Source: a virus
Lineage: Duplodnaviria; Heunggongvirae; Uroviricota; Caudoviricetes
Reading direction: 5' to 3' (one strand)
IMG/VR virus record: IMGVR_UViG_2565956716_000008
DNA length: 40,864 nucleotides
The position numbers and the translations under genes are program-made. Below the pieces are notes generated by a model. The model had not been told where the DNA came from. It saw only the letters and a program-made list of their open reading frames with translations, and made no database searches. Position 1 is the first letter of the stretch, and every line of letters starts with the position of its first letter. Of the stretch, positions 3,088 to 35,036 are shown in pieces.

Positions 3088-3669
3088 TCACTCTCCTTTG
3101 ATGCGAATGCCAGCAAGCCAGTTTCTTATGCCGATATATTCAGCGTTCCTGAAACCGCTTTTTACATATATAAATGGCAAGCGAAGATTGTGACCATTGG
3201 CTGCCAGGTAGTCTTTACAACCCTGTTCGGTGAAACAGCAGGTAACGAATTCATCAATATCTTTCACAGCAACGCGCCGCCATTTTTCTGGTGGTTCCCG
3301 AAAGTTTTCATGAAGTAGTTCGAGACGACGACTTTGGAGTTTATTGGCTTCATTGCCATCTTCATCAACCCAGACAATCCGGTCATAGTCATAATCAGCA
3401 TCAACAACAATTTCGCGCTTTTGATACACACAAAACATAGGGTCTGACGTTATTCGATTATCCTGTGTTCGAATATTTTCACCGATGATGCCAAACGAAT
3501 CTGGCGTAGGTTTTGTCTGTAACTCTTCGATACGTTCAGCCAGCGCCGCGCACTTGGCCTCAGCTTCAGCAAATTTACGCACCAAGTACTCAGCGTTTGT
3601 TTCGTTCACTTTCAGATCTCGCGGTACACATTTCCCGCGAAGAAACCCTTCCATTTCGAAAACATTCAT
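3088..3669 (-). CDS. hypothetical phage early protein
   Basis: 193-aa ORF; start ATG overlaps stop of upstream HD gene (ATGA). Confidence 0.35.
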   Translation of the reverse strand: MNVFEMEGFLRGKCVPRDLKVNETNAEYLVRKFAEAEAKCAALAERIEELQTKPTPDSFGIIGENIRTQDNRITSDPMFCVYQKREIVVDADYDYDRIVWVDEDGNEANKLQSRRLELLHENFREPPEKWRRVAVKDIDEFVTCCFTEQGCKDYLAANGHNLRLPFIYVKSGFRNAEYIGIRNWLAGIRIKGE

Positions 3670-5582: not shown

Positions 5583-5719
5583 TTTGCTGCTCCTCATCAT
5601 ATCGACCCTGCAAGGTCGGTTGGTTTCTCCACAAAACAGAGAAGAACACCTGCGGTGGCAGCCGCCCGGATGGATTGGGTTATGAGCCCGTCGTCCGGTG
5701 ATGCTCTTCTCTGTTTTGT

Positions 5720-5765
5720 AAAAAGAGCGGTACCAGCCGGAAGCAAGTGTACAAACTGGTACCGC
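5720..5765 (-). terminator. candidate intrinsic terminator in early-left operon leader
   Basis: gcggtaccag / ctggtaccgc 10-bp stem followed on minus strand by tcttttt. Confidence 0.35.
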
Positions 5766-6019
5766 GAGGACTACACACAGCATAAAGTTGTGGTGCCGGG
5801 TGCCTCCCGGTGCCTGGCGAAGGTTGCACACCAGGCGGGTGGGTATCCACAGAAGGTCGACTGTCAGCCTCAACCTTAACCCGCGTGCGCTGAGCCGCAT
5901 TCACCACAACGCTAAGGATTCTCTCTGGTTGAAAATACTTAGCTGTTATGTGCCTGTCTTTTCACCACTTCAGGCTCGGTGGTATCCTTTTAAGCCCGTA
6001 TACATAAAAGGAAAATCAA

Positions 6020-6265
6020 ATGACTTTTGATGAAAAAGAACTTGATAATGCAATTAATAAAATCATCGTAACGTCGCTCTTTTCCTGTCTCAGCGACACT
6101 CAGCAGAAACAGTTCTACGAATCGGCTTTCAACATGATCGAGCGTTGTTGTTTCTGCGATGCCGACGAGTTACCTGAAAAAATCAGGAAACAGTTGGCTG
6201 ATGCTCTTCGAGTGCGACTTTCTGACCAATTTTCTGAAATGTGCTCTCCGAATTTGGACAAATAG
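6020..6265 (+). CDS. hypothetical protein (81 aa) in AT-rich immunity-region insert
   Basis: AAGGA RBS 8 nt before ATG; overlaps 3' end of convergent ORF 6183..6458. Confidence 0.3.
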   Translation: MTFDEKELDNAINKIIVTSLFSCLSDTQQKQFYESAFNMIERCCFCDADELPEKIRKQLADALRVRLSDQFSEMCSPNLDK

Positions 6266-6458
6266 AAAAAGGCCATTTCCATTCAGGGTCTGATGGAAAT
6301 ACTTCAGCCTGTTCCAAAGCACGGCGTAAAGAGAATACAACTCCAGCCATAATCTGATGTTTCCCATTGGTCCAGCTATCGCCGCTCTGATCTACAGGAG
6401 CGGCTATGTCGTATGACCAAACGACTTCACCACTATTGTTTAAAATCTGGACTTTCAT
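6183..6458 (-). CDS. hypothetical protein (91 aa), first ORF downstream of PL
   Basis: GGAGG upstream of ATG; convergent 83-bp overlap with 6020..6265. Confidence 0.3.
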   Translation of the reverse strand: MKVQILNNSGEVVWSYDIAAPVDQSGDSWTNGKHQIMAGVVFSLRRALEQAEVFPSDPEWKWPFSICPNSESTFQKIGQKVALEEHQPTVS

Positions 6459-6577
6459 TTTGTTCTTTAACCTCCAGATACGGGCGTTTAATGGCCCCGC
6501 CGAACAGCTCTTTTCCGCAATAGCTGCAATGTCTTTCGCGCATCAGCCTGCGCATTCACCACAACTCTAAAAACAAA

Positions 6578-6628
6578 TGTAGGATATCCAACATGTGAGT
6601 GTCAAGAGTTTATGTTGGTTATCCTACA
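6578..6628. promoter_or_regulatory. OL-like operator pair with leftward promoter (PL)
   Basis: tgtaggatatccaaca (6578-6593) and tgttggttatcctaca (6613-6628); minus-strand TTGACA at 6600-6605 between them. Confidence 0.5.
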
Positions 6629-6643
6629 TAAAAAGATAGGCTC

Positions 6644-6670
6644 ATAAAAAAACCGGGGATACCCCGGTTT
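6644..6670 (-). terminator. rho-independent terminator after repressor gene
   Basis: ccggggtatccccgg hairpin followed by 7 T on minus strand. Confidence 0.6.
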
Positions 6671-6691
6671 TGCGATAGTGAGGAAGATGTG

Positions 6692-7345
6692 TCAAAAATC
6701 CATTATTACTTGTTTGACAAGACCAACTATTCTGCAGTTCTCACCGCATTCAATAGTTTTATAGTTAGGATTTAGTGGGACGAGATACCTGTTCGGCCAG
6801 TCCTCAACAAATTTTTTGAGTGTCGCTTCTTGCCCACCATTGATATGGGCAACAACGATTTTTCCGTTAATACACTCTGTATCAATAATATCTGGCTCTA
6901 CGATAACGATAGAACCTTCTGGTATCGATGGTGAGCCGAGGGGATTGGTCATTGAATCACCACGGACCCGTAGTGCAAATGCCATTTCTGATACAAGGGC
7001 GGTAGTATAAACCCACTCTTCAGCATCTTCTTTCCTGACACCAGGCTCCGTCATTGTCCATGAACCCGCCTGAACCCACGAGATGAGGGGGACTTTTTTA
7101 ACTGCGAATATTTCAGGTTTTAGATTTATCTTTGGTTCAGGCGAGCCTTTTCCGCTAACAAGCCACAGAGGATCGCATTTAAGTGCGTTGGCTAGGGCTT
7201 GAAGGTTGGCTCCATTTGGTTGGTAGTCGTCCTTTTCCCATCCAGTAACCGTGACACGGTTCACACCAGTCAAATCAGCCAGTGCTTGTTGTGTCAGGTT
7301 CAGTTCTTTTCGCCTTTGGCGAATACGATCACTCATGTTCATCAT
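6692..7345 (-). CDS. cI-like repressor (HTH plus S24 LexA-type peptidase domain)
   Basis: N-terminal HTH (LTQQALADLTGVNRVTV), AG cleavage site, GDSM serine and C-terminal lysine; divergent from Cro-like gene. Confidence 0.8.
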   Translation of the reverse strand: MMNMSDRIRQRRKELNLTQQALADLTGVNRVTVTGWEKDDYQPNGANLQALANALKCDPLWLVSGKGSPEPKINLKPEIFAVKKVPLISWVQAGSWTMTEPGVRKEDAEEWVYTTALVSEMAFALRVRGDSMTNPLGSPSIPEGSIVIVEPDIIDTECINGKIVVAHINGGQEATLKKFVEDWPNRYLVPLNPNYKTIECGENCRIVGLVKQVIMDF

Positions 7346-7409
7346 GTAGGCAATCCTACCACATGCCCATGTAGGATTCTTGACATTGGTATGTTGGATA
7401 TCCTACATT
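7344..7409. promoter_or_regulatory. OR-like operators with rightward promoter (PR)
   Basis: three TGTAGG/CCTACA-type palindromes (7344-7361, 7371-7386, 7392-7407); TTGACA 7380-7385, 18-nt spacer, TACATT. Confidence 0.5.
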
Positions 7410-7440: not shown

Positions 7441-7638
7441 ATGTGGAAATCCGACGTGATTAATTATTTCGGCGGAGTTTGTAAAACCGCCGAAGCCCTA
7501 GGTATTAAGCATCCGTCTGTTTCAGAGTGGCCTGAGATTATTCCTGAAGGCCGAGCGTACCAGTTAGAAAAAATTACTAACGGGAAACTGAAAGTTGACG
7601 TGTCTTTATATCAAAAGACTAACAGTGCTGCGGCATAA
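7441..7638 (+). CDS. Cro-like small DNA-binding protein
   Basis: 65 aa, divergent from repressor, GGAG RBS, Cro/YdaS-like sequence character. Confidence 0.55.
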   Translation: MWKSDVINYFGGVCKTAEALGIKHPSVSEWPEIIPEGRAYQLEKITNGKLKVDVSLYQKTNSAAA

Positions 7639-7665: not shown

Positions 7666-8250
7666 GTGGGTAAAGAACCTGAATGGAAAGTTGATAAACA
7701 ACCAGCATGGCTGGTGGCAGCAATACGAAGAACGATTGCTGATTTACCTCATGGCTATGAGGAAGCAGCAGAAATTCTTGGTTTGTATAAATCTGATGAT
7801 ATCACCCCAGCAAAAGATCAATTGCATAACAGACTGCGTAGCGGTGGGGATCAAATTTTTCCACTTGAGTGGGCCATGGTTTTACAGGATGCCAGTGGTA
7901 CCAGGCATGTAACAGATGCAATAGCCCGTCGTAGTAATGGGGTGTTTGTGCCGCTGGTGGTCATTGATGACATTGACAATGGTGACATTAATCAGCGGCT
8001 GATGGAGTCAATAGAATGGATTGGCAAGCATTCCCAGTACTTACGCAAGGCAACTGCTGATGGAGTTATTGACCAAGCTGAGCGTGAGCAAATCGAAGAG
8101 AACAGCTACCAAGTAATGGCGAAGTGGCAGGAGCATTTAACACTGTTATTTCGTGTTTTTTGTGCGCCGGAAAAGAGTAACGCCCGCGAGTGTGCAGCTC
8201 CGGGCGTCGTGGCGTCGATTGCTTCTGGTTGTGGAGAAACTAACGCATGA
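7666..8250 (+). CDS. phage regulatory protein, CII/YdaT-like (tentative)
   Basis: position after cro; weak similarity by eye. Confidence 0.35.
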
Positions 8251-34461: not shown

Positions 34462-35036
34462 CAAACGATGATTATATCCGTCTGTTGTCGGCACTGTTGC
34501 CGCCCGGTCCGGCGTGGTCAGTCAGCGATCCGGCGATTGCCGGTGCGGCACCGTCATTAACCCGCGTTCATCAGCGTGCGGATGCCCTGATGCGGGAGCT
34601 GGATCCGCGCACCACCACTGAACTGATAAACCGCTGGGAGCGTCTGTGCGGTCTGCCGGATGAATGTATTCCCGCAGGGACACAGACCCTTCGCCAGCGT
34701 CAGCAACGGCTGGATGCGAAGGTTAATCTGGCGGGCGGCATCAATGAGGATTTTTATCTTGCACAGCTTGCTGCCCTGGGCAGACCAGACGCCACTATCA
34801 CGCGATACGATAAAAGCACGTTCACCTGCTCATCGGCCTGTACTGACGCAGTGAATGCGCCGGAATGGCGGTATTACTGGCAGGTCAACATGCCAGCCGC
34901 CACCAACACCACCTGGATGACATGTGGCGATCCCTGTGATTCCGCACTGCGTATCTGGGGCGACACCGTTGTCGAGTGCGTGCTTAACAAACTCTGCCCT
35001 TCGCATACCTACGTAATTTTTAAATATCCGGAGTAA
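34452..35036 (+). CDS. tail protein I-like (DUF2313, YmfQ-like)
   Basis: position before tail fibre. Confidence 0.5.

Follow-up and report, generated by a model that had tools for sequence, protein, structure and literature searches.

What two small open reading frames (ORFs) are doing beside the early leftward promoter of a lambdoid prophage, and whether both of them are genes, is the question raised by positions 6020-6458 of IMG/VR virus record IMGVR_UViG_2565956716_000008. The whole stretch of 40,864 nucleotides (nt) that was analysed is called the window here. One ORF lies on the plus strand and points against the putative promoter PL, and the other, on the minus strand, is the first to be read from it. 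An excludon is a set of convergent, overlapping transcription units whose expression is mutually exclusive. Our preferred reading, to which we give a probability of about one half, is that the two genes form an exchangeable pair, one accessory and one early, that behaves as an excludon. The evidence comes from the conservation of both genes, from their place in a polymorphic slot and from the conserved element at its edge.

Two convergent genes that are always linked

The plus gene (6020-6265, plus strand) begins with ATG, encodes 81 amino acids (aa) and has a Shine-Dalgarno sequence, AAGGA, at 6008-6012, 7 nt before the start codon. The minus gene (6183-6458, minus strand), also with an ATG start, encodes 91 aa, and the two converge over 83 base pairs (bp; 6183-6265). 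In all these features the original prediction was accurate, and its estimate of about 40% GC for the block was roughly right: the measured content of 6020-6458 is 42.6%, whereas the window as a whole has 51.0% and the left flank (5590-5950) 54.8%. The length of an ORF is by itself weak evidence of coding, any ATG-initiated ORF of at least 81 aa being found in 4.4% of shuffles of the 439 nt; it is conservation that decides.

Diverged homologues of the minus protein (57-68% identity) were taken from a word-indexed protein search and those of the plus protein (56-64% identity) from a profile search, and the contigs were then searched with tblastn. The plus homologues, which retain conservative substitutions across five genera, include proteins of Salmonella, Klebsiella oxytoca, K. 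variicola, K. michiganensis and Yersinia. Both ORFs were found in 19 of the 19 loci first fetched, with exactly 439 nt from ATG to ATG in each, and both were intact, again with 439 nt between the start codons, in all 43 further distinct cassette variants from viral contigs. The pair co-occurs in loci of E. coli, Shigella, Salmonella, Klebsiella and Yersinia, down to 50-68% protein identity, and the cassette is carried by 408 of 5426 complete E. coli genomes (~7.5%). The first scan of viral contigs had returned near-identical copies only; two scans of genome-contig collections gave no confirmed loci and a metagenome scan gave one.

Codon-position variation was computed on 9 distinct cassettes, and the ratio of non-synonymous to synonymous substitution rates (dN/dS) by the Nei-Gojobori method. 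Over 6020-6182 the variation at the third codon position of the plus frame is 0.47, vs 0.20 and 0.15 at the other two, and over 6266-6458 the minus frame shows the same signature (0.41 vs 0.24 and 0.14). The dN/dS ratio is 0.14 for plus codons 1-54 (control frame 0.83) and 0.24 for minus codons 1-64 (control frame 1.75). Because of these frame-specific signals and the conservation of the pair, both ORFs are real, conserved protein-coding genes, and they are always linked. Constraint in the overlap is confined to the plus frame (dN/dS 0.41 for codons 55-74), the minus frame being nearly neutral (0.80 for codons 65-85). The minus gene has a constrained part, codons 1-64 (6267-6458, minus strand), followed by a C-terminal tail, codons 65-91 (6183-6266, minus strand), that is antisense to the plus gene; its stop codon moves among relatives, giving 91, 93 or 122 aa and overlaps of 74-176 nt. 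The overlap is the C-terminal helix of the plus protein read through by an unconstrained minus tail. Of the convergent overlap that the original prediction took as a sign of antisense coupling, the conserved design holds, with its 439-nt spacing in all loci and the same layout in at least 15 unrelated alleles (see below), and comparison with other phages strengthens the case for the coupling, whereas the notion of two constrained frames does not, the minus tail being a passenger.

An interchangeable allele of an always-filled slot

To the left of the pair lies a 34-nt junction block, GCCTGTCTTTTCACCACTTCAGGCTCGGTGGTAT (5952-5985, plus strand). An exact-match scan of the IMG/VR viral contigs found it in at least 120 contigs, and an identical copy is present in the e14 prophage of E. 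coli K-12. Among the matches listed, at least 15 unrelated types of cassette adjoin the block on its right. Each has a Shine-Dalgarno sequence, a hairpin whose stem differs from type to type and a small plus ORF (61-163 aa), against which a minus ORF converges with an overlap of 4-170 nt; beyond the convergent pair come a PL leader and a repressor. The window pair is the commonest allele, with ~45% of the matches listed. The left flank of the block varies as well, some loci having an STnc100-like RNA there and others the start codon of the adjacent leftward gene, ~8 nt from the block. The segment 6020-6458, originally described as an AT-rich insert, is AT-rich, but it is an interchangeable allele of an always-occupied slot and not an insertion into an empty site, and the ~510-bp module 5952-6458 is a compact exchangeable unit in the early-left arm. 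As far as we could find, the slot and its conserved 34-nt element have apparently not been described before.

The other alleles of the slot are orphans except for hits to the BssS and YdiH families and a weak match to Lar; all their PHROGs are of unknown function, and none of these alleles hit a defence family. One minus allele (locus L123, IMG/VR 2609459938_000002), of 67 aa and starting MTTRRIRSRFKRSAGRRYRHE, has an arginine-rich N-terminus, as in N antiterminators, and no match in PHROG or Pfam.

The minus gene stands in the place of N, and the plus gene in the place and orientation of sieB and ymfI. The pair had been assigned to the first position left of the repressor and PL, with rexAB and sieB as the genes expected there. 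That first position belongs to the minus ORF; the plus gene is indeed where lambda, Rac and e14 have a gene against PL (sieB or ymfI), whereas rexAB is found beyond PL, on the repressor's side. In the window, as in every diverged locus, the minus gene opens the series of genes that follows the repressor and PL; the backgrounds, among them Rac-like (YdaS/YdaT) and SfV-like (YfdP/YfdQ) ones, carry at least 5 different repressors. The leaders upstream of the minus ATG, where a nut site (boxA with a boxB hairpin) would lie, are unrelated between loci that share the cassette; that of the window, in which a small hairpin (GCGCA-GGCTGA-TGCGC, ~6535-6550, minus strand) was seen by eye, belongs to the immunity module. 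Since the identity between the window and Shigella phage SfV stops exactly at the minus ATG, immunity module and cassette are exchanged independently.

The conserved junction element

The ~75 nt before the plus ATG are conserved in all diverged cassettes, and further left the sequences are unrelated. Within this segment a -35-like TTCACC (5961-5966, plus strand) is followed after 16 nt by a -10-like TATCCT (5983-5988), which the TG at 5980-5981 turns into an extended -10, TGgTATCCT. Within the 200 nt that precede the plus ATG, no other promoter-like site is common to all variants. The -10-like hexamer stays TATNCT (TAT followed by CCT, CTT, GCT or TCT) across unrelated cassettes, whose identity ends after TAT. 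From its sequence, the extended -10 is a putative promoter of the plus gene.

The block can also fold. Helix A (5952-5956 with 5971-5975) and helix B (5964-5968 with 5979-5983) are interleaved in a pseudoknot topology, and in 10 diverged variants 100% of the cells pair, three pairs showing compensatory double changes; control helices slid along the sequence pair at no more than 45%. With ~6 independent lineages, this covariation is good but not overwhelming evidence for the two helices. Hairpin C (5985-6012) is formed by TCCTTTTA (5985-5992) and TAAAAGGA (6005-6012) around a 12-nt loop, and its right arm holds the Shine-Dalgarno sequence of the plus gene. Of 24 sequence types, 23 have a predicted hairpin in this position, built on quite dissimilar stems, and the pair adjoining the core is T-A, C-G or G-C. 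Folding energies lean slightly towards the minus sense, the minimum free energy being lower there for 17 of the 24 types, and several U.G wobbles, judged by eye, favour the plus sense. If the helices act in a minus-sense RNA, they would be part of the PL transcript.

A proposed pattern of expression

The minus gene is preceded by a PL-like promoter with operator-like inverted repeats (6576-6629, minus strand), in which TTGACA (6605-6600) and TACATT (6581-6576) are 18 nt apart. The repeats that flank it, ATGTAGGATATCCAACAT at 6577-6594 and a near-complement at 6612-6629, are found again at PR (7369-7408), and the mirror-image PR itself is at 7380-7409. This PL-like region is part of the immunity module and drives the minus gene together with the antisense strand of the plus gene, so that RNA started at PL would be complementary to the plus mRNA over its full length and would only then enter the STnc100-like RNA with its terminator. 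On the opposite strand no terminator-like site was found in 6265-6645, the first being a bidirectional hairpin terminator between the repressor gene and PL (6649-6672; -19.9 kcal/mol in the plus and -17.0 in the minus sense, z ~ -3.7 each). Transcripts leaving the plus gene would therefore cover the minus gene in antisense and extend past PL.

As everything to its left is either leftward-transcribed or variable, the plus gene needs a promoter of its own, which would most likely be the extended -10 in the junction block. It would be on in the lysogen, while PL is repressed, and the firing of PL would shut it off by transcriptional interference and antisense pairing. The minus gene, being the first from a repressor-controlled PL, would stay off in the lysogen; its product would appear only after infection or induction, as the first to be made. 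This behaviour would match that of e14 ymfJ, a gene with late induction in the SOS response and a detected protein product (PMC11002266). The working part of the minus protein would be its first ~64 residues, the rest being a read-through tail. Our best guess makes the plus protein an accessory factor, expressed in the lysogen and acting in exclusion or host modulation, and the minus protein an early factor, possibly an antagonist of the plus protein. Promoter, expression pattern and mutual exclusion are all deduced from the sequence; a defence function would be plausible, and a matched-antagonist function, such as an exclusion factor with its early antagonist, is speculation.

Two acidic proteins outside known families

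The plus protein is acidic (isoelectric point (pI) 4.56), with a grand average of hydropathy of -0.40, and matches phrog_3311, of unknown function, over its full length. Its AlphaFold2 (AF2) model, with three helices and a mean predicted local distance difference test (pLDDT) score of 68, predicts a soluble protein, and a Foldseek comparison of this model with the PDB was uninformative (best E 3.9). The family is tiny: an exhaustive profile search against 1.84 billion representatives gave only 21 hits, with no informative fusions to known domains among them. A CCxC motif in the plus protein is absent from distant relatives and is therefore not the core of the family. No homology to SieB was found, and with 81 aa and a soluble model the plus protein does not resemble a membrane protein of ~160-190 aa. 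Only RAST-type pipelines annotate the plus ORF; the Prokaryotic Genome Annotation Pipeline (PGAP) and the SfV annotation call the minus gene alone.

The minus gene is orf33 of SfV and WP_001514782.1 in PGAP, and a literature search for WP_001514782 found nothing. Its product has a full-length match to phrog_3195, the sole PHROG hit and of unknown function; its AF2 model (pLDDT 44) is unusable. It is acidic (pI 4.95; 7 K+R vs 11 D+E), with the N-terminus MKVQILNNSGEVVW, lacks an arginine-rich motif and matches none of the known N families in Pfam, NCBIfam or PDB sequences, and the idea of an N homologue was rejected on composition and homology. For both proteins nothing significant emerged from Pfam, NCBIfam, PADLOC or PDB sequences; the best PADLOC E-values (0.02-0.05) concerned short stretches, and no defence or toxin-antitoxin model was matched. 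The original view that neither protein is N-like agrees with these results, and the homology and structure searches that it proposed uncovered conserved homologues and no known family or fold.

Two hairpins were noted inside the minus ORF. The GC-rich GCCGCTC(N10)GAGCGGC at 6381-6404, in codons for AA...SG, has arm cores (GCCGC/GCGGC) that are invariant in 8 of 9 diverged variants, synonymous sites elsewhere being heavily substituted; no covariation was seen among the 9 variants, and the hairpin may be an RNA structure embedded in the coding sequence. At 6262-6310 (minus strand), at the end of the constrained part and just past the plus stop codon, a terminator-like hairpin (-15.2 kcal/mol, z -1.85) is followed by UUUUUCUAUUU. 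It was rejected as a conserved terminator: the hairpin occurs only in the window/SfV type, and the U-run, which alone is conserved, is so because it encodes an invariant WPF.

Weighing the alternatives

Several observations weigh against an excludon-like pair. Helices A, B and C overlap the proposed -35 and -10 elements and the Shine-Dalgarno sequence, and if they act in a plus-sense RNA, transcription would have to start upstream of 5952, where nothing is conserved, in conflict with the proposed -10. Folding energies and wobbles disagree on the strand that uses the helices, and the putative plus promoter is a match to consensus only. The expression pattern of the cassette is drawn from layout, promoter consensus and analogy with K-12, and in the K-12 data ymfI, too, rose modestly in the SOS response, so that it is not obviously exclusive of ymfJ, with some uncertainty about strand-specificity (PMC11002266). 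Searches of Pfam, NCBIfam, PADLOC and the PDB, Foldseek and the profile search gave no homology, fold or defence-database support for any function.

One alternative, which treats the plus ORF as an accident of the antisense strand or as an artefact arising from the 3' region of the minus gene, could appeal to the annotations that name only the minus gene and to the 4.4% of shuffles that yield an ORF of this length. It is rejected by the third-position variation and the dN/dS of 0.14 where the minus ORF does not reach, by homologues at 56-64% identity with conservative substitutions in five genera, and by the overlap, where it is the minus frame that is unconstrained; we regard it as extremely improbable. 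The same data dispose of the scenario, raised with the original prediction, that neither ORF is conserved or that the plus ORF belongs to the 3' untranslated region of the minus gene. A stronger case can be made for a regulatory RNA as the main product of the plus strand, interfering or pairing with PL transcripts, with A, B and C as a riboregulator and the 81-aa protein as secondary. Lambda paQ, PRE and oop are precedents for RNA acting against opposing transcripts, covarying helices lie immediately upstream, one hairpin there sequesters the Shine-Dalgarno sequence, and plus transcripts would cross the minus gene and PL before meeting a terminator. We nevertheless think this unlikely, for purifying selection clearly acts on the protein encoded by the plus ORF, and a plus ORF with a Shine-Dalgarno sequence is present in all alleles of the slot.

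Two further possibilities assign roles to the proteins. In one of them the minus protein is a functional replacement of N in early antitermination or regulation, and the plus gene or its transcript restrains it. The minus gene is first in the PL operon in every background, the allele of L123 has an N-like N-terminus, and a strong terminator ~450-500 nt downstream, before yfdP, yfdQ and int, means that some mechanism of read-through is needed. The minus protein is acidic, however, with no arginine-rich motif or family match; it is freely swapped for unrelated proteins with the same flanks, which would be surprising for an essential regulator tied to cis sites, and no nut-like site appears to travel with the cassette. 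Such a replacement is doubtful. The other possibility, a defence and self-immunity pair like SieB/Esc, is a specific functional version of the excludon-like pair: the plus protein would exclude superinfecting phages or abort their growth, and the minus protein, first from PL, would neutralise it for the phage's own lytic growth. The position and orientation of sieB, the strict co-inheritance of the two genes in every locus and the hypervariability of the slot, as is often seen at arms-race loci, speak for it, as does the precedent of sieB/esc/sas in P22 (cited in PMC7067206). PADLOC gave no significant match, the plus protein is small, soluble and acidic, unlike the membrane protein SieB, the other alleles match BssS and YdiH and not defence families, the CCxC motif is missing in distant relatives, and physical overlap would force co-inheritance in any case. 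We consider this version possible and well short of probable.

The excludon-like reading can also be extended from the window to the whole family, and this extension is tentative and less likely than not. A conserved junction element, with a stem-variable hairpin after it, would drive many unrelated small genes against PL, each welded 3' to 3' to a variable first gene of PL, and the pairs would be matched lysogen-versus-lytic modules toggled by convergent transcription. If this is true, enterobacterial lambdoid prophages, e14 of K-12 among them, have in this slot a hotspot of diversity serving conflict between phages or between phage and host.

Genomic setting

The window is a lambdoid, SfV-like prophage of E. 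coli. Phage vB_EcoM-720R4 and several E. coli chromosomes match positions 5900-6700 without a difference (100% identity), and SfV is 98.8% identical over 5900-6460. Beyond PL the immunity region contains an S24/helix-turn-helix repressor (6692-7345, minus strand), a P22-Cro-like cro (7441-7638, plus strand) and a CII-like gene (7666-8250, plus strand). Among the genomes sharing the identical immunity region, E. coli CT02 (locus L003, from 4770 onwards) has a rearranged prophage in which baseplate genes come straight after cro, with a truncated pseudogene at the junction; some carriers are therefore deleted or defective prophages. Downstream of the cassette in the PL sense lies a structured RNA of the STnc100 family (5718-5940, minus strand; Rfam RF02076), which scores 49.1 bits vs a gathering score of 47, covers model positions 1-206 and ends in a strong intrinsic terminator (~5718-5765, -23.7 kcal/mol). 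It is context, outside the cassette. PGAP calls a 'frameshifted hypothetical protein' on the DNA of this RNA, and in K-12 e14 at least the beginning of this element is covered by the coding sequence ymfH; ymfH may be an RNA that was wrongly annotated.

Several short features were noted around PL and the STnc100-like RNA. A 15-nt direct repeat, CGCATTCACCACAAC (GTTGTGGTGAATGCG in the minus sense), occurs at 5896-5910 and 6551-6565, with a small GC hairpin after each copy; one copy immediately follows the start of PL, and the second stands where the RNA has its 5' end. A repeated 15-mer in 40 kb is borderline for chance, and a hybrid form is present in locus L221; the role of the repeat may be that of a nut-like site or of a recombination site. 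A stretch of ~86 bp just left of PL (the 6480-6566 region) matches many unrelated phages and plasmid-prophages at 97-99%, among them P1, RCS47 near plp, Stx2 phages, mEp460 and IME207, and may be another short shared boundary sequence. The immunity-specific PL leader of the window also contains a 40-aa ORF (MRRLMRERHCSYCGKELFGG..., 6433-6555, minus strand), which overlaps the start of the minus gene and has no match in PHROG or Pfam.

Other carriers have elements that the window lacks. Between PL and the first gene, a ~60-nt leader element (aggcaggacgcccacgaagtagccgcc...ggcatacgaag.ccgggatgattcg) is common to SfV, SfII, SfIV, ST64B, mEp237, mEp460, ZF40, YeP1-3 and e14, at ~3590-3660 (minus strand) in the SfV locus (L001) and ~2610-2665 in that of e14 (L111); it could be a cis-acting leader RNA, perhaps put-like. 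It is absent from the window, whose immunity module has a different leader. The isrK and C4 antisense RNA genes lie right of cro in SfV (L001, 5670-5858, plus strand), inside what is called the 'orf37 immunity region', and in a Salmonella prophage (L019, 7281-7469, plus strand); neither is in the window.

Comparison with known systems

SfV has a cassette that is 98.8% identical, and its orf33 is the minus gene. SfV differs in its immunity module and PL leader and in having C4 and isrK, and its plus gene is unannotated. ST64B does not carry the cassette. In lambda, N on the minus strand and sieB on the plus strand likewise meet 3' to 3', their stop codons abutting at 35036/35037, and in Rac sieB points against PL and meets the first PL gene, ydaF, in the same way. 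The window genes, however, overlap by 83 bp where the lambda pair merely abuts, and their products have no sequence or fold relation to N or SieB: the plus protein is a soluble protein of 81 aa and SieB a membrane protein of ~180 aa, and the minus protein, unlike lambda N, is acidic and devoid of an arginine-rich motif.

The likeness to e14 extends to the junction itself. There the repressor gene ymfK (minus strand) is followed by ymfJ (minus strand) and ymfI (plus strand), the last two overlapping by 63 bp, and e14 has the same 34-nt block with an STnc100-like left flank, identical up to the TAT of the -10. After this TAT, e14 has its own hairpin C stem, Shine-Dalgarno sequence and ymfI, and YmfI and YmfJ are unrelated to the window proteins (BLASTP E 5.8 and no alignment). 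Because ymfI and ymfJ are themselves uncharacterised, the comparison is one of architecture and not of function. From RNA-seq, ymfI-ymfJ and sieB-ydaF of K-12 have been listed as convergent excludons (PMC12288877). The window pair shares with excludons the convergent genes, the overlapping 3' ends of the coding sequences and one partner under a switchable promoter; it is known from its sequence layout, exclusive expression being reported for the analogous K-12 pairs only.

Two frames that pass as hypothetical, one of them usually unannotated, thereby become a defined and testable unit at what is, in a temperate phage, the spot under the tightest regulation. If the plus genes are lysogen-expressed exclusion factors or host modulators, the slot is a new place to look for small accessory proteins of prophages. 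With the same junction element and layout present in ymfI/ymfJ, the regulatory logic, with its putative promoter, pseudoknot, hairpin and antisense coupling, can be tested in K-12 and then applied to the family. The window pair is an uncharacterised instance of a known architecture, that of a gene against PL welded to the first gene of PL, as in the sieB and ymfI loci.

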